Source: Patescibacteria group bacterium (GTDB taxonomy: Bacteria; Patescibacteriota; Patescibacteriia; UBA9934; GWF2-40-263). From it: DNA of 64,000 bases. Shown here piece by piece: positions 4,523 to 46,444 of the stretch. Numbering within the stretch: position 1 is the first letter of the stretch; every line of letters begins with the position of its first letter. Where the stretch lies: contig JBAZTR010000002.1 of the NCBI GenBank assembly GCA_041661745.1, positions 68,368 to 132,367 on the forward strand, read 5' to 3'. A program made the translations under genes and the position numbers. Under the pieces are notes generated by a model that was not told the origin of the DNA, ran no database searches, and saw only the letters and a program-made list of their open reading frames with translations.

Positions 4523-5830
4523 CTATTCTTCAACTCTTTTAATATTCGCTCCCAGCCCTTTCAGCTTTTCTTCCAAACGTTCGTAACCGCGATCAAGATG
4601 TTCGATACCAGTTAAGACCGACTCACCTTCGGCCACTAAGGCGGCTAAGACCAAAGCCAAGCCAGCGCGAATGTCGGGCACAACAATTGGCGCGGCTTTT
4701 AACGGTGTTGGTCCGTTAATAACCGCAGCGTGTTTGTAGTTCATGCCTTTGAAGCGGCAATTTATTTCGCCGAGACAATTTGGGAACAAGGTGATGTCAG
4801 CTCCCATAATATTCAGAGTCTCGGTATATCCGAAACGTTCTTCATAAACTGTTTCATGAACAACACTGGTTCCTTGAGCTTGTGTTAAAACGACAGTGAA
4901 CGGCTGTTGCCAATCGGTCATAAAACCGGGATGAGTATCGGTTTCAAGTTCAATGCCGTGTAAACCATTATCGCGTTTAAACAAAATGCCATCTTCCCTG
5001 ACTTCGTAAGTGCCACCAATTTTTCTGACAGCGTTTAAAAAAGTTATCAAGTGATCGTGTACCGCGCCTTTGATAAAAATTTCACCATTGGTGGCCATGG
5101 CCATACAAGCGTAACTGACGGCTTCGTTTCGATCGGGCATAACCCGAGCCTGACAACCATTTAGTTTCTCAACACCGATAATTTCAAATTGACGACCGAC
5201 CCCGACCTCAATTATGGCCCCCATTTTTTGGAGCATCTTAACCAGTTCCATAATCTCTGGTTCGATAGCGGCGTTTCTAATAACCGTGCGCCCCTTGGCC
5301 AGAACACCGGCCAAAATAACTGTCTCGGTCGCGCCAACCGAAGGAAACGGCAGTTCAATTAATGTGCCTTTCAGACGACCTTCGACCGAGGCACGATAAC
5401 CATCAGGAAGCTCCTCGATTTTCGCGCCCATTTTCTTTAAGGCATCAAGGTGAAAGTTAACCGGCCGCGGCCCAATTTTATCGCCACCGGCCACCGGCAC
5501 AAAAGCTTCGCCAACGCGATGAAGCAACGGAGCGATAGATAAAACAGAGATACGATTTTGGCGTGACAAACCGGTCACGGACGGCGAGGAAATTTTAGCC
5601 GCGTTAACCTCGACTGTATGTTCGGCCACCCATGTGGTGGTGGCACCAATGGCGTGAAGAATTTCTTCAGTAATCTGGACCTCGGCATGACGCGGCAGAT
5701 TTTCCAAAATCACCGGCTCATCGGTTAAAAGAGCGGCGATCATCATTTTAGACGAAGCGTTTTTTGCTCCAGAAAGTTCCACGGTTCCCTTTAAAGGTTT
5801 ACCGCCAATAATATGATAAGTTGATGTCAT
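4523..5830 (-). CDS. murA: UDP-N-acetylglucosamine 1-carboxyvinyltransferase
   Basis: MTSTYHIIGGKPLKGTVELSGAKNA... has full-length similarity to MurA. Start at internal Met, 13 codons into the track ORF. Confidence 0.9.
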   Translation of the reverse strand: MTSTYHIIGGKPLKGTVELSGAKNASSKMMIAALLTDEPVILENLPRHAEVQITEEILHAIGATTTWVAEHTVEVNAAKISSPSVTGLSRQNRISVLSIAPLLHRVGEAFVPVAGGDKIGPRPVNFHLDALKKMGAKIEELPDGYRASVEGRLKGTLIELPFPSVGATETVILAGVLAKGRTVIRNAAIEPEIMELVKMLQKMGAIIEVGVGRQFEIIGVEKLNGCQARVMPDRNEAVSYACMAMATNGEIFIKGAVHDHLITFLNAVRKIGGTYEVREDGILFKRDNGLHGIELETDTHPGFMTDWQQPFTVVLTQAQGTSVVHETVYEERFGYTETLNIMGADITLFPNCLGEINCRFKGMNYKHAAVINGPTPLKAAPIVVPDIRAGLALVLAALVAEGESVLTGIEHLDRGYERLEEKLKGLGANIKRVEE

Positions 5831-5868
5831 AGGAAGTAGCTTGTAGGAGGTAGCTTGTAGATTAGACA
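5826..5868. repeat. CTAC-type leader repeat upstream of murA (single arm)
   Basis: Plus strand ggaagtagcttgtaggaggtagcttgtagattagacac. Reverse complement ctacaagctacctcctacaagctacttcc directly precedes the murA ATG. Confidence 0.5.
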
Positions 5869-8306: not shown

Positions 8307-8458
8307 ATTTTAGCTTGTAGCTTGTAGCTTGTAGGAGGTAGGTTTTTCCGGCTCCAACAGACAACAAGCCGATTAATTTTCTGCAAAAAGATTAACATTT
8401 TATTTTTAAAAAAGCAATGATTCCTGCCTACAAGCTACTTCCTACAAACTACAAGCTA
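8307..8458. repeat. Long imperfect inverted repeat: GTAG-type arm (8310-8342) and CTAC-type arm (8421-8458) around a ~90 nt spacer, forming the ndk leader
   Basis: Left arm tagcttgtagcttgtagcttgtaggaggtagg. Reverse complement of right arm is tagcttgtagtttgtaggaagtagcttgtaggcagg. On the mRNA strand the CTAC-rich arm ends immediately before the ndk ATG. Confidence 0.6.
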
Positions 8459-9388
8459 AAACGGCAATGGCCGACTCTCCACTATCGGTTCCCCACCGGT
8501 CGAGGTAATTAAAACATCGCCATCGAGATCAGTGCGGAAAATTTTGATGCCACGCGTCTGCAAACGTTCAAGAGTGGCCGGATGTGGATGGCCGTAATCG
8601 TTATCAGTGCCAACCGAAATAATGGCGTAGCGCGGCTTAGCAACTTCAAGGAAACTCCCCGAAGTGGAAGTGACACTGCCATGGTGCGCGACCTTCAAAA
8701 CATCAACCGGTTCGGCCAGGTCGTCAAAAATTTCGTCTTCCTCATCAATCGGAGCATCGCCGGTTAAAAGAATCGAGGTCTCACCATAAGTTAAAAGAAG
8801 AACAACCGAGGCTTCGTTTAAGTTGTCGAGTTTTTTGTTTTGTAAATTGGTGTCTGGGGCGATAATTTCTAACCTCACCCCTGCGCCCCTCTCCTTCGCA
8901 AGGAGAGGGGGAGTTCCCTCTGACACCAAGTCCATCACTGCTCCTTGTCCCTCGGTCAACTCGCGAACACTGTCTTGTAGGTCGTCATAACCAAGCACAC
9001 CCGTCTCATAAATTGTCCCGACATTGTAACGAGACAAAACCTCGGGCAAACCACCTTCGTGATCGGCGTGAGGATGAGTGATAATAACAGCATCAATGGA
9101 ACGGTCCCACGGCAACATGACCTGACCAAGTTTGGTTAAAACCGAACTGTCGGCTCCGGCATCCACCAGAATTTGTTCGCCCTCGGGTGTTTCGATGAAA
9201 ATTGCATCGGCTTGCCCCACGTCAAAAATCCAAACCTTCAATTCTTTATCAAGTTGCATTGTATAAAACATCTGCCAGGTTAAAGCTAAAACCATAGCCA
9301 AGGTCATAAGACCAAGGCCAACCAACTTTTTCCGTTGCGCGGAAAATTTTATTGGTCGAGCGCGAGTTTGGATCGGCGAGCGAGCCAT
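8456..9388 (-). CDS. comEC: ComEC C-terminal part: single TM helix plus metallo-beta-lactamase domain (separate ORF or frameshifted continuation of comEC)
   Basis: MARSPIQTRARPIKF...TM...VWIFDVGQADAIFIE...HPHADHEGG...VAHHGS is the ComEC/Rec2 MBL domain. It overlaps the upstream ComEC N-terminal ORF by about 37 nt in a different frame. It also contains in-frame palindromic element copy A. Confidence 0.7.
   Translation of the reverse strand: MARSPIQTRARPIKFSAQRKKLVGLGLMTLAMVLALTWQMFYTMQLDKELKVWIFDVGQADAIFIETPEGEQILVDAGADSSVLTKLGQVMLPWDRSIDAVIITHPHADHEGGLPEVLSRYNVGTIYETGVLGYDDLQDSVRELTEGQGAVMDLVSEGTPPLLAKERGAGVRLEIIAPDTNLQNKKLDNLNEASVVLLLTYGETSILLTGDAPIDEEDEIFDDLAEPVDVLKVAHHGSVTSTSGSFLEVAKPRYAIISVGTDNDYGHPHPATLERLQTRGIKIFRTDLDGDVLITSTGGEPIVESRPLPF
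8870..8911. repeat. GC-rich palindromic element copy A, in-frame inside the comEC beta-lactamase domain (encodes ...TPPLLAKERGAGVRL...)
   Basis: TAACCTCACCCCtgcgCCCCTCTCCTTcgcAAGGAGAGGGGg. Same core as copies B and C. Antisense to the host gene and read in a different frame from copy B. Confidence 0.75.
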
Positions 9389-10686
9389 AATAAAAAGATA
9401 AAGACAACAAAAGCCAAAACTGCTGACAAAATTTTTGGTAAAACAATTGAAGCAAAAAAAACTGAACCAAACCAAGTCACTAAAAGCAAAACAAACGAAC
9501 TCAAAGCCGAAGCCGGAACAGCGACAATCGCCCCGAGCGTAACGGAAAGCCAACCAACACCGAGAGCTACCCCACCAAGAAGCATGAGATATGGAATCCA
9601 CGGCAAAATAAGGAGGTTAACTAAAGGCGCGATAAGTGAAGTTGAACCAAAGTGCCAGAGCATTATCGGCAGGGTGGCCGAAATGGCGGCAAGCGAAGCA
9701 GCACACGATTCACGCAAACCAAAAACTTCAGGAATAAAATTTACTCGCTCGCCAAACCAGTTACCTAGTAGCATCAAACCGGCTGTCGCCCCAAAAGAAA
9801 GTTGAAAACCAACATCGGTAATCAAATGCGGATTAAAAATCATCATGAGGAAAGCCGAAAGAAGAAGGAGATTGCCGGCATGCGGGGTGCGACCAAGCCA
9901 GGTGCCGAGCATAACCGTCGAGGCCATAATGCCAGCGCGAATAACCGGCGGCGTCGCCCCGGCCAAAAAGATATAGAGAATAACCAGTAAGCCGGAAACA
10001 ATAATCGCTCGTCGTCGACCAAGGGTACTCCGCATGAGAAGAACTAAAAGAAGCTGAGAAAAAATAGAAACGTTATAACCCGAAGCGGCCATGACATGTG
10101 AAAGTCCGGTGTGTGAAAAATCACCCTTCATGTCTTGGCTTAACCCCTGACTGCCGCCAAAAAGAATTCCGCTCATAAACGCGGCATGTGGCTCGGGGAA
10201 AATTTTTCCCAGCCGTTCAATCATAGCCAGACGAAGTGATAAAAGAGCATCGCTAATATTCCACGCAGCCTTCCCTTGCACCACTAACTCCTCTGGGCGA
10301 TAACACACGGCGTAAACTCCACGACTTTCAAGATAAGCGGCGTAGTCAAAATCATTAAACGGTTCGGGCACGACCAGTTCACAACGAAATTCCAAAATAT
10401 CGCCAGTAGAAAAGTTCTGCCACTTAGGTAAACGTGCCAAAATTTTTCCGTTCTGTTCTTCGCCGCCAACCTGAATATTTTTTAGGGTCACTTCTTGCGC
10501 CGAATCGCGCTGAACAATCTCCCCGGCAATTGTACCGGTCATGACCGTTTCTTTATTAACAAAATCACGAACCGTGGGGCTCGTGATTTCATCAAAAAAT
10601 AATGCTTTAGCCGACAAACCAACTATCAAAACCAGTAGGATGACAAAGAGGGATCGCGACGGTGACTTATCGAGTCCCCACACCAT
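9349..10686 (-). CDS. comEC: ComEC N-terminal part: DUF4131-like region plus polytopic competence channel domain
   Basis: About 10 predicted TM helices. Region ...GLSHVMAASGYNVSI... is typical of the ComEC competence domain. Its start overlaps the ugd stop by 20 nt. Confidence 0.75.
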   Translation of the reverse strand: MVWGLDKSPSRSLFVILLVLIVGLSAKALFFDEITSPTVRDFVNKETVMTGTIAGEIVQRDSAQEVTLKNIQVGGEEQNGKILARLPKWQNFSTGDILEFRCELVVPEPFNDFDYAAYLESRGVYAVCYRPEELVVQGKAAWNISDALLSLRLAMIERLGKIFPEPHAAFMSGILFGGSQGLSQDMKGDFSHTGLSHVMAASGYNVSIFSQLLLVLLMRSTLGRRRAIIVSGLLVILYIFLAGATPPVIRAGIMASTVMLGTWLGRTPHAGNLLLLSAFLMMIFNPHLITDVGFQLSFGATAGLMLLGNWFGERVNFIPEVFGLRESCAASLAAISATLPIMLWHFGSTSLIAPLVNLLILPWIPYLMLLGGVALGVGWLSVTLGAIVAVPASALSSFVLLLVTWFGSVFFASIVLPKILSAVLAFVVFIFLLWLARRSKLALDQ

Positions 10687-14050: not shown

Positions 14051-16930
14051 TTACTTGATGACGATATTCATTAACTTGCCCGGGACAAAAATCGTTTTAA
14101 CGATTTCTTTTCCGTCTAAATATTTCTTTACGTTGTCTTCAGTTTCCGCCGCCGCTTTCACCTCAGCTTCGCCCGCTTCGGGCGAAACCACGATCGTCCC
14201 GCGAAGTTTTCCATTAACCTGGACGGCAATCGTCACCTCGTCCTCTTTCACAAGTTCGGGATCAAACTCCGGCCACGATCCTTCTTCGACAAAACCTTTA
14301 CCACCAAACGAAGAATAAATTTCGTTGGCCAAGTGCGGAGCAAAAGGACACAAGACACGAACGAATTTTAAAAGATTGTCTTTAGTGATTCCTTTCTCTT
14401 CGTAAACCACATTCACAAAAGTCATCATTTGCGCCACGGCTGTGTTGAAACGAAAACTGTCGATATCCTCGGAAACTTTTTTAATTGTTTGATGAAGGGC
14501 CCGGGTAACTTTCTTAGTTTCTTCTTTAATTATAATTTGTTCCAACCCGGAAACTCGTTCCAAAAAGCGTCTGGTCCCGACCAAACCATTGGTACTCCAC
14601 ACGGCCGGTTGATTAAACGGCCCCATAAACATTTCATAAACCCGCAGAGCATCGGCTCCGTAATCGTTTACCATGTCGTCGGGATTAATTACATTACCCC
14701 AGCGCTTCGACATTTTGCGACCATCTTCGGCCAGAATCAAACCAACGTTTTGTAAACGAGTAAAAGGTTCCTCAACGCTAACCGCGCCAATATCAAAAAG
14801 AAACTTGTGCCAAAACCGCGCATAGATAAGGTGACGGGTGGCATGCTCGGCTCCACCAACATACAAATCAACCGGCGACCAATATTTTTCTTTTTTAGCA
14901 TCAACCAAAGCTGTGTCATTTTTAGGATCCATGTACCGCAAATAATACCAACAACTGCCAGCCCATTGCGGCATGGTGTTGGTTTCACGTTTGGCCGGGC
15001 CGCCACAGTTAGGACAAGTTGTGTTAACCCACTCGTCAATGTTGGCCAGCGGCGATTCGCCAGTGCCTGTTGGTTCGTAGTGTTCAACTTGTGGAAGTTC
15101 AAGCGGTAGTTGATCTTCCGGAAGGGCGACGACTCCACACTTGGCACAATGCACAAGCGGAATTGGCTCGCCCCAATAACGCTGGCGAGAAAAAACCCAA
15201 TCACGAAGTTTATATTGCGTTTGGCATTGGCCCAAACCCTTTTCTTCCAACCAAGAAATCATGTCAGCTTTGGCTTTCCAGGTCGGCAGGCCATCCAAAA
15301 AGTCGGAATTAATGGCTACGCCTTCTTCAACAAAAACCGGTGCACCTTCCTTGTAGGCGTACCAAATCATCGGGCCATCGACAACGTTAACGGTTTTTTC
15401 TACTTCACTTTCATCAAACCAAACCGGCTCGTGATTTTTTAATTCTTCGGCCGGAATTTCATCATGATCATCGTTTACTAAATCCAAAACCGCCACACGA
15501 ATTTGCGCATATCGATTTTGACCTTTGTGCGCAGCAAAATATTCGGTGTGAACTTCGAAACCGACATCTTTAACAAATTTAAAATTTTTATAACCGGTTT
15601 CCTCGGTCGCTTCACGGATAGCCGCGGTAGATAAATCTTCGTCACCTTCAATACCACCGATAATAAAGGTGTGGAGGTGCGAACGGCTAGGTGTAATATT
15701 AGAAAACCAATTAAGCAGCAAAACTTTTCCGTCTTTCGGGTTACGAATAATGACATGAACGTTTTTGCGACGGCTTTCCGGAACCCCTTCGTGCGGCGGA
15801 TTGGCTGGATCAATGAAATGGGGAGCGACTACTTGTTTAATTGGCAAATTATATTTTGTGGCAAAGGCAAAATCGCGTTCATCGTGTGCTGGCACGGCCA
15901 TAATGGCGCCGGTGCCGTAGCCCATCAAAACATAATCAGCCACCCAAATCGGAATTTTTTCATTGTTGGCCGGATTGATGGCATAAGCGCCGGTGAAGAC
16001 GCCAGTTTTTTCTTTGGTATCATCGCCGCGTTCAATATCTGTTTTAGCTTTCGTGGCGGCAAGGTAATTTTCAACCTCAACTCGACATTCACTAGTGGTA
16101 ATTTCCGAAACAAGCGAATGTTCAGGAGCCAAAACCATGTAAGTCGCGCCAAATAAAGTGTCGGGACGGGTGGTGAAAACTCTAACCTCACCCCTTCCCT
16201 CTCCTTCGTAAGGAGAGGGGGAAACGATTTTGAAAGTAACTTCCGCCCCCTCGCTCTTACCAATCCACTCCCGCTGCATTTGCTTAATCGAGTCCGGCCA
16301 TTCGGTCAGCTTATCGAGATCGGCAAGCAGACGATCGGCATAATCGGTAATTTTCAAAACCCACTGGCGCATTGGTTTTTGTTCAACCACACTGCCGCAG
16401 CGTTCACATTTACCATCGTCCAAATCTTCATTGGCCAAACCGGTTTGGCAACTCGGGCACCAATTGATTGGTTCGAAAGATTCATAAGCCAAACCTTTTT
16501 TAAACATCTGAAGAAACGCCCATTGTGTCCATTTATAATATTTTGGATCAGTTGTGTTTACTTCCCTGTCCCAATCATAAGTAAAACCAAGAATGGAAAG
16601 CTGTTTTTTAAAAACTTCAATATTCTGCTTAGTAGCCACGGCCGGATGGACTTTATTTTTAATGGCAAAATTTTCCGCCGGCAAGCCAAAAGCATCCCAA
16701 CCCATGGGGTGAAGAACAGAAAAACCCTGCATCATTTTAGTGCGAGCTACAACATCGGTGGCAATGTAGCCTTTAGGGTGACCAACGTGAAGCCCGGCGC
16801 CGGAAGGATATGGAAACATGTCGAGGGCATAAAACTTTTTCTTGCCAGAATCTTCATTAGTTTTAAAAATGCCGGACTTGGCCCATTTTTCCTGCCACTT
16901 TTTCTCAATTTGTTTGTGATCGTAAGGCAT
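14051..16930 (-). CDS. leuS: Leucyl-tRNA synthetase carrying an inserted Nudix hydrolase domain (about residues 385-530) and an in-frame palindromic element (residues 237-251)
   Basis: HVGH motif (GAGLHVGHPKGY), KMSKR motif (GRKMSKRWGN) and CP1 editing region (TTRPDT). A Nudix box GGIEGDEDLSTAAIREATEETGY sits between AVPAHDERDFAFATKY and the leucyl-specific region YKLRDWVFSRQRYWGEPIP. Confidence 0.9.
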   Translation of the reverse strand: MPYDHKQIEKKWQEKWAKSGIFKTNEDSGKKKFYALDMFPYPSGAGLHVGHPKGYIATDVVARTKMMQGFSVLHPMGWDAFGLPAENFAIKNKVHPAVATKQNIEVFKKQLSILGFTYDWDREVNTTDPKYYKWTQWAFLQMFKKGLAYESFEPINWCPSCQTGLANEDLDDGKCERCGSVVEQKPMRQWVLKITDYADRLLADLDKLTEWPDSIKQMQREWIGKSEGAEVTFKIVSPSPYEGEGRGEVRVFTTRPDTLFGATYMVLAPEHSLVSEITTSECRVEVENYLAATKAKTDIERGDDTKEKTGVFTGAYAINPANNEKIPIWVADYVLMGYGTGAIMAVPAHDERDFAFATKYNLPIKQVVAPHFIDPANPPHEGVPESRRKNVHVIIRNPKDGKVLLLNWFSNITPSRSHLHTFIIGGIEGDEDLSTAAIREATEETGYKNFKFVKDVGFEVHTEYFAAHKGQNRYAQIRVAVLDLVNDDHDEIPAEELKNHEPVWFDESEVEKTVNVVDGPMIWYAYKEGAPVFVEEGVAINSDFLDGLPTWKAKADMISWLEEKGLGQCQTQYKLRDWVFSRQRYWGEPIPLVHCAKCGVVALPEDQLPLELPQVEHYEPTGTGESPLANIDEWVNTTCPNCGGPAKRETNTMPQWAGSCWYYLRYMDPKNDTALVDAKKEKYWSPVDLYVGGAEHATRHLIYARFWHKFLFDIGAVSVEEPFTRLQNVGLILAEDGRKMSKRWGNVINPDDMVNDYGADALRVYEMFMGPFNQPAVWSTNGLVGTRRFLERVSGLEQIIIKEETKKVTRALHQTIKKVSEDIDSFRFNTAVAQMMTFVNVVYEEKGITKDNLLKFVRVLCPFAPHLANEIYSSFGGKGFVEEGSWPEFDPELVKEDEVTIAVQVNGKLRGTIVVSPEAGEAEVKAAAETEDNVKKYLDGKEIVKTIFVPGKLMNIVIK
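15340..15780 (-). other. Nudix hydrolase domain inserted within the leuS coding sequence (approximate bounds)
   Basis: Nudix signature GX5EX7REUXEEXGU is satisfied by GGIEGDEDLSTAAIREATEETGY. About 150 aa are extra relative to E. coli LeuS at this position. Confidence 0.6.
16183..16221. repeat. GC-rich palindromic element copy B, in-frame inside leuS (encodes ...SPSPYEGEGRGEVRV...)
   Basis: TAACCTCACCCCttCCCTCTCCTTcgtAAGGAGAGGGGg. Base composition contrasts sharply with the surrounding leuS sequence. Confidence 0.8.
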
Positions 16931-18405: not shown

Positions 18406-18562
18406 AGTGCAAAAAATTATTTTTTTCCTAGGACGAATATAGATTAATACTTTGGTAAGTGGAGGGCAACAAAAAAAGTGTATAACCATTGACAACAAGG
18501 AAATTTTATGTTAAAAATAACCGCCTCTTTGAGTCCACCCCGCAAATTCTCCCGGAGGAGAA

Positions 18563-18811
18563 ATGCTAGGAAAGTTCCTTGGCAACGAATTCGCCACGCC
18601 GGTCACGGCAGTCACTCTCATGGTTGCGGCCATGCTCATCTACGCCGGAATGGCCTGCCGACTGCACGTTGGCACGCCGGCCTTCATCTGGTTGGCCCTG
18701 GTGTTGGCCTTCCTGGTGGAGGCCAACCTCGAGTGCCTCCCGGCCCGGTGGATGACGAAGGGTTTTGCCGTGGCCCTCGCCGGCGCCGCGGCCGTCTGCG
18801 TCATCTTCTGA
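18563..18811 (+). CDS. Small GC-rich membrane protein with 2 predicted TM helices; hypothetical
   Basis: GGAGGAG Shine-Dalgarno 6 nt upstream of the ATG. Two hydrophobic helices. Overlapping longer ORFs on both strands are R/G/P-rich noise. Immediately followed by palindromic element copy F plus a T-run. Confidence 0.35.
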   Translation: MLGKFLGNEFATPVTAVTLMVAAMLIYAGMACRLHVGTPAFIWLALVLAFLVEANLECLPARWMTKGFAVALAGAAAVCVIF

Positions 18812-18813
18812 GT

Positions 18814-18860
18814 CTTCCTCCCCAACCCGCCCCTCCTCAACTCTCGAGGAGCGGTTTTTT
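18814..18860 (+). repeat. GC-rich palindromic element copy F, acting as terminator stem after the small membrane ORF
   Basis: CTTCCTCCCCAACCCGCCCCTCCTCaactctcGAGGAGCGG + TTTTTTT. Aligns with copy C sense sequence CCTCACCCCCCAACCCCTCTCCTTacgAAGGAGAGGGG. Confidence 0.6.
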
Positions 18861-18870
18861 TAATCAAAAA

Positions 18871-18892
18871 AACAACGGTCGAAACCGTCGTT
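18871..18892 (-). terminator. trxB terminator hairpin
   Basis: Minus-strand reading AACGACGGtttcgaCCGTTGTT followed by a T-run. Confidence 0.5.
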
Positions 18893-18894
18893 TT

Positions 18895-18950
18895 CACCTC
18901 TCCCCTTCTCCCCTCTCCTTCGTAAGGAGAGGGGTTGGGGGGTGAGGTTA
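18895..18950 (-). repeat. GC-rich palindromic element copy C at the 3' end of trxB; its TAA terminus is the trxB stop codon
   Basis: Minus-strand reading TAACCTCACCCCccaaCCCCTCTCCTTacgAAGGAGAGGGGagaaggggagaggtga. Copies C and F are tail-to-tail around two convergent terminators. Confidence 0.75.
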
Positions 18951-19871
18951 TTTTTGTAACCAACGTTCAGCATCCATGGCTGCCATACAACCAGTACCAG
19001 CCGAAGTGATAGCCTGACGATAACGAGTATCGGCAACATCACCGCCGGCGAAAACACCAGGGACACTGGTTTCACTCCCACGCCCCTTACATATAATGTA
19101 ACCACGCTCATCCATTTCCACTTGTCCCTTAAACATTTCTGTATTCGGTTTGTGGCCAATGGCCGGAAAAATGCCATCGACCTTAATTTCTGTTTCCTCG
19201 TTGGTTTTAGAATTCAGAACTTTTGCGCCGGTTACCTTTGTCCCATCACCAAGAACTTCTTTAACCGAAACATTCCAAACAAAATTAATTTTTGCTTCGG
19301 CCTGGGCTTTCTCTTGCATGATTTTTGAGGCTTTTAGACTTTCACCGCGTACCAGAACTGTTACCTTATTGGCAAACTTAGCGAGGTCAAGAGCCTCCTC
19401 CATAGCGGCATCACCACCACCAACAACCGCGACTTCTTTACCTTTAAAGAAAAAGCCATCGCAAGTGGCGCAAACCGAAACCCCCTTACCTTTATACTGT
19501 TCCTCGCCCGGCACATTCATCCAAATGGCCGAGGCTCCGGTGGCAATAACCAAACTCTCGGTTTGGTATTCCGCCCCGCTGGTCGAAACAATCTTAAAAG
19601 GCTGCGCCGACAAATCAACCGAAGCAATATTTTCGGCGATAATTTTTGTTCCAAACTTTTCCGCCTGTTTTCGCATGCGCTCTTCCATTAACTCCGAACC
19701 ATAAACACCTTCAGGAAAGCCGGGAAAATTTTCGACGACTGTTGTCCACATTAATTGCCCGCCTGGTTGCGGCCCGGAAAACAAAACCGGAGCAAGTTCA
19801 GCTCGCGCGGCGTAAATGGCCGCCGTGTAACCGGCCGGACCAGCGCCGATGATGATTATTTTTTCTGACAT
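18948..19871 (-). CDS. trxB: Thioredoxin-disulfide reductase
   Basis: GAGPAGYTAA FAD motif, CATC redox site, GGGDAAMEEA NADPH motif. Confidence 0.9.
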   Translation of the reverse strand: MSEKIIIIGAGPAGYTAAIYAARAELAPVLFSGPQPGGQLMWTTVVENFPGFPEGVYGSELMEERMRKQAEKFGTKIIAENIASVDLSAQPFKIVSTSGAEYQTESLVIATGASAIWMNVPGEEQYKGKGVSVCATCDGFFFKGKEVAVVGGGDAAMEEALDLAKFANKVTVLVRGESLKASKIMQEKAQAEAKINFVWNVSVKEVLGDGTKVTGAKVLNSKTNEETEIKVDGIFPAIGHKPNTEMFKGQVEMDERGYIICKGRGSETSVPGVFAGGDVADTRYRQAITSAGTGCMAAMDAERWLQK

Positions 19872-45571: not shown

Positions 45572-46444
45572 CTACTCCTCCAAGAAACGTCGGTGTTGTT
45601 CGACCATCGCGAGCAACTCGGGGCCGGTGAAGACTGGGCGTTGAATTGTCTGCCAGTCGTTGGTCGAACGTGCAGGGTCCCACGGGCAAATCGAACGCAT
45701 CCAGTCAAGGCGAGTCCGCACATCAGTCGCACCTTCGGGATTGATCCGAGTATAGTGGAGGATATGGCCGTTGTGAATGCGGTCCAGGTTGCGTCGCGAC
45801 CTATCCAAATCGCGGAAGCGCTGCGGCGTCATGCGCTCAATAAGCACACGAACGGCCCACATAACCTCACCATGACAGACGATGATGACCGAGCCGTTGG
45901 ACTGCTCGCGGTGAAGTGAGTCAAAGAAAGCATGCAGACGATCAAGGACATCGGCCAGTGATTCACCGCCACCCGGCCGCCACCACACACCATCACGTTC
46001 CCTACGAGCCAAATTTTCGGCCATCTCGCCAGTGGCCCGCTGTTCAGCCGTGGCCGAACTAAGCCGACCCCAGTCGCGCTCGGACAGCATGGGGTGCAAA
46101 AGCCACTCAGCCCCCGGCATTTCTAGCAACCCGGCCGTTTCGATGGCCCGAGCGTACCAGCTAGTCAGGTAACGAGTGAAGCCTGCGGGAAACTCACGCC
46201 GCAGCCACTCACCGGCGGCCGCAGCTTGATTGCAGCCGCGCGGACTAAGACGCCATTCCTGGGTGTGAACCGCGTCGAGCTTGGCCATGAGTGAGCTATC
46301 GCCTTTTTTTACCAGAGCCTGGGCAACATTCCCCTCGCTCTCTCCGTGACGAACGAGGACAAGATTAAGCGGCATAGTCATGGACACATCCCCTTTCATT
46401 GAGCCTTGGAAATCGACCTTAACACCTAATTTTTTAAGCGTCAA
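45572..46444 (-). CDS. Histidine phosphatase family protein (phosphoglycerate mutase-like); GC-rich island gene
   Basis: LVLVRHGESEGN RHG catalytic motif. Start may be the internal Met MPLNLVLV at about 46375. GC-rich like the adjacent Nudix gene. Confidence 0.55.
   Translation of the reverse strand: MTLKKLGVKVDFQGSMKGDVSMTMPLNLVLVRHGESEGNVAQALVKKGDSSLMAKLDAVHTQEWRLSPRGCNQAAAAGEWLRREFPAGFTRYLTSWYARAIETAGLLEMPGAEWLLHPMLSERDWGRLSSATAEQRATGEMAENLARRERDGVWWRPGGGESLADVLDRLHAFFDSLHREQSNGSVIIVCHGEVMWAVRVLIERMTPQRFRDLDRSRRNLDRIHNGHILHYTRINPEGATDVRTRLDWMRSICPWDPARSTNDWQTIQRPVFTGPELLAMVEQHRRFLEE

Follow-up and report, generated by a model that had tools for sequence, protein, structure and literature searches.

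A Repeated Palindromic Module in Frame Within a ComEC-Type Metallo-β-Lactamase Gene and Its Association With DUF559 Genes

Genes and Repeat Copies at the Locus

The window analyzed here is a stretch of 64,000 nt from contig JBAZTR010000002.1 of a Patescibacteria group bacterium (assembly GCA_041661745.1). It harbors a stand-alone gene for a metallo-β-lactamase (MBL) protein of the ComEC type, within which lies a 42-nt palindromic sequence (copy A) that recurs in frame in leuS (copy B) and in an intergenic region (copy C). On the + strand, copy A (8870–8911) reads TAACCTCACCCC-TGCG-CCCCTCTCCTT-CGC-AAGGAGAGGGG-G and thus consists of a 12-nt arm (TAACCTCACCCC) and a hairpin with a perfect 11-bp stem (CCCCTCTCCTT-cgc-AAGGAGAGGGG). 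Copy A belongs to a repeated palindromic family and lies in frame within an intact gene, in a part that codes a loop. An earlier note on this DNA, made from the sequence alone, had described a repeated element in frame inside the MBL gene, which is in agreement with the three copies found, the intact open reading frame (ORF), and the Lactamase_B match across the element. The host ORF is uninterrupted on the minus strand over 8456–9601, its conserved start codon being the ATG at 9388, and the Pfam Lactamase_B match (1.9e-18) spans copy A. The coordinates of the features are listed in Table 1.

Table 1. Coordinates of the repeat copies and their host or neighboring genes in the window.
Feature	Position	Strand	Description
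Copy A arm	8870..8881	-	gene sense GGGGTGAGGTTA; codes G-V-R-L; starts β-strand 172–177 of the MBL protein
Copy A spacer	8882..8885	-	CGCA in gene sense
Copy A hairpin	8886..8910	-	CCCCTCTCCTT-gcg-AAGGAGAGGGG; perfect 11-bp stem; codes P-L-L-A-K-E-R-G
Copy B	16183..16220	-	arm TAACCTCACCCC + hairpin; in frame in leuS; codes SPSPYEGEGRGEV
Copy C, complete short form	18895..18950	.	intergenic; terminal TAA is the trxB stop codon
Copy C left arm	18895..18905		CACCTCTCCCC
Copy C hairpin	18910..18934
Copy C right arm	18937..18950		GGGGGGTGAGGTTA
Host MBL gene	8456..9388	-	stand-alone ComEC C-terminal module, 310 aa; Pfam Lactamase_B, catalytic residues
ComEC DUF4131 + Competence (channel) gene	9349..10686	-	overlaps the MBL gene by 40 nt
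leuS	14051..16930	-	959 aa; carries copy B
trxB	18948..19871	-	stop codon abuts and overlaps copy C

The 25-nt hairpin of copy A was found again at 16196–16220 and 18910–18934 and gave 0 matches in 100 dinucleotide-preserving shuffles. Its 12-nt arm occurs at exactly three loci in the window, those of copies A, B, and C, against 0.25 expected. Copy A matched copies B and C over 41 nt with 86–88% identity, the stems and the 12-nt arm being identical, and the window copies share 83–88% identity among themselves (88% for A vs. B). Terminal inverted repeats are present in copy C (CACCTCTCCCC ... GGGGGGTGAGG), and a single arm only in copies A and B. Copy C folds as one long hairpin (−36.6 and −40.9 kcal/mol for the two strands, z about −6); the stability of hairpins A and B alone was unexceptional for their composition (z = −1.5 and −1.8). 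The sequence TAACCTCACC at 45862 was rejected as a fourth copy, being a chance match without the hairpin. The Rfam scan of the whole window returned only four tRNAs and no intron, and copy C gave only sub-threshold matches to generic long hairpins (miRNA precursors).

The residues H105, D109, H110, D211, and H235/H236 of the MBL protein are invariant in 42 homologues, and the protein matched the solved ComEC chains 30bt and 9ic4 at 1e-28 to 3e-29. The earlier assignment to the ComEC β-lactamase domain was right as to the fold; the domain is, however, a separate gene, with a 40-nt overlap with the Competence gene. MBL and DUF4131/Competence are not fused in one polypeptide and are encoded by two ORFs that overlap at 9349–9388. 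The same two-gene arrangement was observed in the relatives L001, L002, L259, and L260, and the MBL homologues are stand-alone proteins of about 300 aa, whose source names assign the organism to Candidatus Uhrbacteria (Patescibacteria/CPR). The split ComEC looks like a conserved trait of the Candidatus Uhrbacteria clade rather than a frameshift error, judging from these sequences.

Alignment and Predicted Structure of the MBL Segment

The MBL alignment comprised 120 homologues, 95 of them at 55% identity or less. All 95 showed a segment of constant length (17–18 residues, xVxxGDxFxFGDVTLDV) between the flanking strands, and only the clade at 62–100% identity showed a variable segment, which ranged from 16 to 49 residues and mostly carried Pro/Leu...Gly/Glu (PLP..GEG) signatures. 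The insert was likewise missing in about 70 distant ComEC genes, those of Clostridia and Chloroflexi among them, and in the best-matching solved ComEC structures (30bt and 9ic4). The scan of genome contigs yielded only three close Uhrbacteria genomes and was used mainly as an outgroup set. In the multiple alignment that the earlier note had suggested, the segment is therefore not conserved native sequence in distant taxa.

An insert of about 14 residues had been proposed. This agrees with the 14–15 residues coded by the element and not with the gain in length, as the segment measures 22 residues in the window MBL protein against 17–18, a net gain over insert-free homologues of only 5. At this site a native strand of about 7 residues has given way to the element, whose arm itself codes the V-R-L that opens the next MBL strand. 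Since the net gain is only 5 residues in the MBL protein and 7 in LeuS, native sequence has been replaced.

The AlphaFold2 model of the MBL protein had a predicted local distance difference test (pLDDT) score of 88.8 overall and of about 63 in residues 155–171. These residues form a loop between the strands 151–154 and 172–177, and the insert loop falls between HxHxDH (105–110) and D211/H235-H236. The structural modeling proposed earlier thus places the insert in a loop between strands, and between HxHxDH and D211. With the catalytic residues intact and the insert in a loop, the insertion looks harmless for ComEC in this model.

Reading Frames and Strands

Copy A reads ACT CCC CCT CTC CTT GCG AAG GAG AGG GGC GCA GGG GTG AGG TTA GAA in gene sense and yields TPPLLAKERGAGVRLE; copy B reads TCC CCC TCT CCT TAC GAA GGA GAG GGA AGG GGT GAG GTT AGA and yields SPSPYEGEGRGEVR. 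The arm is translated as GVRL in copy A vs. GEV in copy B, one base apart (GTG AGG TTA GAA vs. GGT GAG GTT AGA). Both the peptide ...DLVSEGTPPLLAKERGAGVRLEIIAPD... and the difference in frame from the leuS copy were thus as described in the earlier note. Its statement that copy A is read on the opposite strand of its host was wrong for A vs. B, as copies A and B lie on the + strand and their host genes on the − strand, i.e., in the same orientation relative to their hosts. Copy C alone is met from the other strand, TAA being the reverse complement of TTA. The contrast drawn between the two triplets is correct insofar as TTA is read as Leu173 in copy A and copy C ends in the TAA that serves as the trxB stop codon (18948–18950, minus strand); the stop codon, however, need not come from the element. 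In the syntenic relative L260, which has no element after trxB, the gene still ends AAA TAA, four bases before gdh, and the trxB stop codon was therefore probably not donated by copy C.

Tolerance of several frames had also been proposed, and different frames are indeed used in different hosts. Only two frames are open, however. The arm GGGGTGAGG has a TGA in the third frame, and since this TGA closes it, copies A and B occupy the only two open frames of that strand. Among 126 copies of the unit of hairpin and arm (hereafter, the module), one frame of the G-rich strand always had a TGA, only 3 were open in all six frames, and the openness per frame equaled that of random windows. The suggestion that modules are stop-free in all six frames by design was rejected on the count of 3/126. 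Of the copies in long ORFs read from the G-rich strand, four were in the GVR frame and seven in the GEV frame; in-frame copies read from the C-rich strand give peptides of the TSPQPSP or LTPSPSP type.

History at the MBL and leuS Sites

Related hairpins were found at the same MBL site in relatives of the window. The site reads CCCCCTCCTT-acg-AAGGAGGGGG + GGGGGAGGTTA in L001 and CCCTCCCTCGTATG-cca-CATACGGGGGAGGG + GGGGTGGGG in L002; L009 has a related copy (CCCCCTCCC ... GGGGGAGGGG + GGGGTGGGG), and L010 has additional sequence besides its hairpin, CCCTCTCCC-tgg-GGGAGAGGG + GGGGTGAGGGG. In L260, the 5′ stem alone is left (VLPLSYGALEI), and in L259 there is no hairpin; the homologues P0003 and P0014 are of a hairpin-free type as well. 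The MBL insertion is therefore old and not fresh. It was inherited vertically in the clade and has since grown, decayed, or become homogenized.

The spacing between WIGxS and TTRPDT in leuS is 26 residues in the window vs. a modal 19 residues in other bacteria. The leuS site occurs with a DUF559 domain (L001, L002, L007, and P0163), with a solo module (the window and L260), or empty, at the modal spacing of 19 residues. The orthologue of copy B in L260 is a solo copy identical at 36/42 nt. Copy B shares 88% identity with copy A and only 67% with the L001 module at the same leuS site, whose stem is of another type, so that simple vertical descent from the right module of a DUF559 cassette fits poorly. 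The mismatch is only suggestive of replacement or conversion instead of simple descent, the sequences being very short.

Further insertions were observed in LeuS. The window protein carries an in-frame NUDIX domain (residues 387–516) after the editing-domain region. The L001 protein (L001:3046-7269) has 1407 aa and includes DUF559, NUDIX, and another two inserted segments, and the L260 protein (L260:4898-7321) has 807 aa, without DUF559, NUDIX, or further inserted segments. Domain insertions in LeuS appear to be highly dynamic in the Uhrbacteria clade. Other bacteria have different low-complexity inserts at the same LeuS site, e.g., ISNFQFPNKSQNPISN and KSPKSKVKSQKP (P0260, P0262, P0266, P0318, and P0344; among P0241-P0360), which look like translations of other repeat families. 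Owing to such repeat-like inserts at the same site, the LeuS β-turn could possibly be a general insertion hotspot.

Distribution of the Module

The module was searched with a pattern that specified the 3′ stem and the arm only, the 5′ stem being left unspecified. It was found in at least 120 metagenome contigs with a GC content of 0.22–0.70 and in 49 viral contigs, one of which holds five copies in the same orientation in 7.3 kb. A complementary 5′ stem (at most 1 mismatch) accompanied 134/171 distinct modules, and a left arm was also present in 19 of the 171. BLAST located the module on plasmids of Calothrix, Leptolyngbya, and Stanieria. On the plasmid pSTA7437.01 of Stanieria cyanosphaera PCC 7437 (NC_019765.1, 41662–41711, L258), it lies in frame inside the coding sequence of cas10d (type I-D), and this module-bearing gene of a cultured cyanobacterium is annotated and intact.

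Seventeen copies on contigs below 52% GC sit in long ORFs, and ten of these were scanned against Pfam. The hosts are TsaD, UvrD, CCA/poly(A) polymerase, RsmA, a C39-ABC exporter, PurD, MnmA, ValS, a DEAD helicase, and PPDK. In 9/10 of them, the Pfam match extends across the module, and the C39 match stops just upstream of it. In-frame copies are also present in UvrA and UvrB of L004, the uvrA copy having terminal inverted repeats (TAACCCACCCC ... GAGGGGAGAGTTA), so that at least 12 conserved genes besides MBL and leuS carry the module in frame. All intragenic copies examined leave the host frame open, and the length differences between orthologues are multiples of three, which is expected only if the element is translated. 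TTA or TAA often abuts the arm without a consistent duplication, and the dinucleotides after the arm are mildly T-rich.

In contigs of high GC content (66–70%; L101, L103, L121, L128, L135, and L203), the module was observed within a longer composite repeat that codes ...GNPSPVRRGAGVRCRPLDQ...TADPSPCPLPTGEGSPR... and has a second hairpin about 60 nt away.

Association With DUF559 Genes

DUF559 is a very large family of unknown function. In L001, L002, and L007, LeuS holds an in-frame domain of about 160 residues at the exact site of copy B, which matched Pfam DUF559 at 3e-34. On its left, the domain is bracketed by an arm and a hairpin, e.g., TCACCTCTCCCC-caa-CCCCTCCCC-gaaa-GGGAGGGG (coding SPNPSPKGRG), and on its right by a hairpin and an arm, CCCTCCC-tttt-GGGGAGGG-ccc-GGGAGAGGTAA (coding LPFGEGPGEV); the two arms are mutual inverted repeats. 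The same module–DUF559–module architecture was found inside tRNA-guanine transglycosylase (TGT) of L004. A stand-alone cassette in L005 has the ends TAACCCCACCCC ... GGGGTGGGGTAA, its terminal TAA being the stop codon of the ORF, and L007 has a further stand-alone DUF559 cassette. The closest DUF559 proteins in the database carry flanking peptides of the module type, and one has the module inside the domain itself.

The association was also apparent in loci picked on other grounds. Among 120 metagenome loci picked for the module alone, 8 had a DUF559 gene, 7 of these genes directly adjoining the searched module, and hairpin modules were present on both sides of all eight. Conversely, 3/3 DUF559 genes picked regardless of modules, from non-CPR contigs (CPR, candidate phyla radiation; one contig is named Chloroflexi), had a hairpin and G-arm 15–35 nt upstream. 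An adjacent module was thus present in 17/17 DUF559 genes examined. Clustering of the ORFs within 300 nt of the 126 modules gave DUF559 as the only recurrent family, and no transposase or RAYT-like cluster was found among them (RAYT, REP-associated tyrosine transposase; REP, repetitive extragenic palindromic). The module family is thus widespread, adjoins every DUF559 gene examined and, by its open frames, would often be translated.

The DUF559 domain matched PDB 3hrl (3e-22) and keeps the motif E-x-D-G-x-x-H (VEVDGDIHD in relatives). DUF559 has been grouped with Vsr and the EDxHD homing endonuclease I-Bth0305I (PMC3424549, PMC3239194, PMC9403480). No Hint or intein domain was found in the DUF559-bearing LeuS or TGT, whose ORFs are continuous; an intein or intron was rejected for them on these grounds.

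Some stand-alone DUF559 genes share further features. In L261, L262, and L264, which are unrelated contigs, a common upstream leader precedes the DUF559 start at 1501 by about 130 nt. It contains the hairpin CCCTCTCCC-aa-GGGAGAGGG (absent or diverged in L264), followed by TCTCCCCC-tt-GGGGGAGA + GGGAGAGRGGT, which points to a regulatory region or to a conserved left end of greater length. AbiEii/AbiEi toxin–antitoxin genes directly adjoin the DUF559 gene in L261 (L261:1926-3369) and in L002 are located about 2.7 kb downstream of the leuS that carries DUF559 (L002:6370-7262). In L262 and L261, the DUF559 genes have TIR-domain and Eco57I-like genes as flanking neighbors. A tendency of DUF559 genes to occupy defence or mobile regions is possible.

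Other Repeats and Neighboring Sequences

A second, unrelated repeat, TAGCTTGTAGCTTGTAGGAGGTAGG, is present as 35-nt inverted repeats at 8308–8342 and 8427–8461, 84 nt apart. The pair extends across the stretch between ndk and the MBL gene, its second arm overlapping the stop codon of the latter, and the repeat occurs once more near 5836 (5821–5863). Between copy C and gdh, a stretch of about 430 nt (18500–18890) has a GC content of 58% vs. 46% for the window and contains an ORF for an 82-aa hydrophobic protein on the + strand (18563–18811). The stretch is absent from L260, where gdh begins 4 nt after trxB, and may have been acquired together with copy C.

Origin of Copy A and Alternative Explanations

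The element occurs as a hairpin with one arm (A and B), as arm–hairpin–arm (C), and, in relatives, as arm–hairpin–[DUF559 endonuclease ORF]–hairpin–arm. Copy A is probably a solo end-module, hairpin plus arm, of a selfish palindromic element that is horizontally widespread, resembles the Rickettsia palindromic elements (RPEs), and would be mobilized by DUF559. We infer that the family is selfish and mobile, and copy A is probably without function for the cell. According to this explanation, copy A entered the MBL gene of an ancestor of the Uhrbacteria clade at a β-hairpin turn, part of which it replaced, as the alignment suggests, and, the frame being intact, it would be transcribed and translated as part of the MBL protein. 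The palindrome, pyrimidine-rich and then purine-rich, codes a flexible Pro/Leu/Ser-x-Gly/Glu/Arg peptide in a surface loop away from the catalytic motifs, which is why copy A would be tolerated. Survival would be limited to insertions in an open frame, two of the three being open on this strand and copies A and B using one each. The DUF559 nuclease (Vsr-like PD-(D/E)XK, E-x-D-x3-H) would be the element's own enzyme and would either mobilize the modules or home into them, with roughly 25–30 nt of arm and stem per side as homology. The DUF559 ORF could then be deleted when the flanking hairpins recombine with each other, which would leave a solo module.

Several observations weigh against this explanation. 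The net replacement of native residues is not predicted by a simple cut-and-paste insertion. Within the 64-kb window there is no DUF559 gene. No target-site duplication was definable when the flanks of the copies and relatives were compared. Most of the metagenome copies are intergenic, as are REP-like elements with host roles, and the perfect stems of old copies leave room for selection on the hairpin itself, through a host or RNA-level function. Since stop codons are, overall, no rarer in the modules than in random windows, "built to be translated" would be too strong a description. To our knowledge, DUF559 is a small nuclease and not a known transposase, and we know of no biochemical work that links it to the hairpins.

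[quoted passage not shown] The shape of copy C, arm–hairpin–arm as in a REPIN or MITE, the intergenic position of most copies, and the window without a DUF559 gene are consistent with this, and the window copies and several relatives end in TTA/TAA beside the arm, reminiscent of a TA target. On the other hand, the clustering of ORFs near the 126 modules gave no transposase, only DUF559 being recurrent, the adjacent module in 17/17 DUF559 genes is the same type of evidence that tied RAYTs to REPs, and no target-site duplication was seen. A DNA- or RNA-level role of the hairpin for the host, as proposed for REP sequences and bacterial interspersed mosaic elements (mRNA stabilization, ribosome or polymerase pausing, a protein-binding site), with the peptide as a by-product, seems decidedly improbable to us. 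Hairpins lost or half-deleted at the MBL site in L259 and L260, where the gene is otherwise conserved, argue against it, as do the insert lengths of 16–49 residues, the copies in unrelated genes in both orientations with no common position, the lack of any Rfam family, and the ordinary stability of hairpins A and B alone. In its favor, copies older than the split from the relatives keep perfect 10–11-bp stems, the stems at the MBL site differ yet stay complementary (CCCCTCTCCTT/AAGGAGAGGGG, CCCCCTCCTT/AAGGAGGGGG, CCCTCCCTCGTATG/CATACGGGGGAGGG), and copy C lies directly after a stop codon.

Two further explanations concern copy A itself. Removal of the segment before the protein works, as an unrecognized intron-like or intein-like sequence, would make the frame irrelevant. 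The element ends can pair with each other, and introns are also known in rRNA and tRNA genes of CPR bacteria (PMC13011429). This is nevertheless very improbable, as the open host frames and length differences in multiples of three in every intragenic copy examined, the lack of Hint/intein domains in the DUF559-bearing LeuS and TGT, and the absence of a ribozyme or Rfam match in the window scan (the relatives' cassettes lay outside it) all oppose it, and 42 nt is too short for a self-splicing intron. Hardly credible, finally, is a native lineage-specific ComEC loop that resembles the other copies by chance or low complexity. Variability in the MBL alignment is highest in this region; this explanation is nonetheless refuted by the shuffles, none of which gave such a match, by the 95 distant homologues with constant site length and no such sequence, and by the 41-nt match to copies B and C with identical stems and arm.

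A wider proposal can be put forward tentatively, as a possibility that we hold with less than even confidence. The module could be the end of undescribed cross-phylum selfish elements with DUF559 as their enzyme, which would live in the frames of essential genes (LeuS, TGT, and others) without an intron or intein, survive via flexible Pro/Gly linkers coded by their palindromic ends, and leave behind translated solo modules, copy A among them, as landing pads or footprints. If this is true, DUF559 would gain a role, and a homing-type nuclease gene would have a third mode of residence in coding sequence besides introns and inteins. The bracketing by the module provides a concrete hypothesis for this large domain family and hints at a route by which CPR housekeeping proteins acquire nuclease domains; the DUF559 association, if confirmed, would be the part that matters most. 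The module may also account for loop insertions in conserved proteins, as a general and overlooked source, and for spurious "hypothetical" PSP...GEG peptides in annotation.

Comparison With Known Systems

No description of this element was found in the literature searched, most subscription journals lying outside the search. PARCELs (from palindromic amphipathic repeat coding elements) are likewise palindromic coding DNA spread horizontally among unrelated microbes; they are, however, tandem repeat domains of 25 residues in surface proteins of unknown function and not single short inserts in housekeeping enzymes. MITEs such as ERIC, Correia, and Nezha are similar in being small and multi-copy with terminal inverted repeats (as in copy C), in resembling internal-deletion derivatives of a longer coding element, and in occasional in-frame fusions with host genes (PMC10969869). 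No target-site duplication was definable in the flanks compared. Unlike in MITEs, the longer form encodes DUF559 and no transposase, and the commonest form of the module, a hairpin with one arm, is half a MITE.

The REP/REPIN-RAYT system also consists of short hairpin repeats, single or as inverted doublets that make a longer hairpin, and there too the protein gene itself is repeat-flanked, which led to the enzyme (PMC3116915). The flanked gene here is a PD-(D/E)XK nuclease of the DUF559 family and not a RAYT of the Y1 HUH type. Moreover, REPs are extragenic by definition, whereas many module copies would be translated and their distribution crosses phyla. The EDxHD (Vsr-like) homing endonucleases, e.g., I-Bth0305I, belong to the same nuclease superfamily clade (PMC3239194, PMC3424549), and the nuclease gene lodged in essential genes, with a leuS site that is filled, remnant, or empty, gives the pattern of a homing cycle. 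Those enzymes reside in group I introns or inteins and have NUMOD DNA-binding modules (PMC3239194), whereas the predicted DUF559 nuclease would here be translated into the host protein between hairpin-coded Pro/Gly-rich linkers, without an intron or intein.

By analogy, RPEs are the closest counterpart in behavior. They too are short palindromic repeats in frame in many unrelated housekeeping genes, translated, at sites predicted to spare the fold, and also intergenic (Ogata et al. 2000, summarized in PMC10969869). Their length is about 100–150 bp, they are confined to Rickettsia, and no associated enzyme is known for them. The present module differs in being about 40–60 bp long, with no sequence relation to RPEs, in occurring in contigs of 22–70% GC that include CPR, cyanobacteria, Chloroflexi, Armatimonadota, and viral contigs, and in adjoining every DUF559 gene examined.

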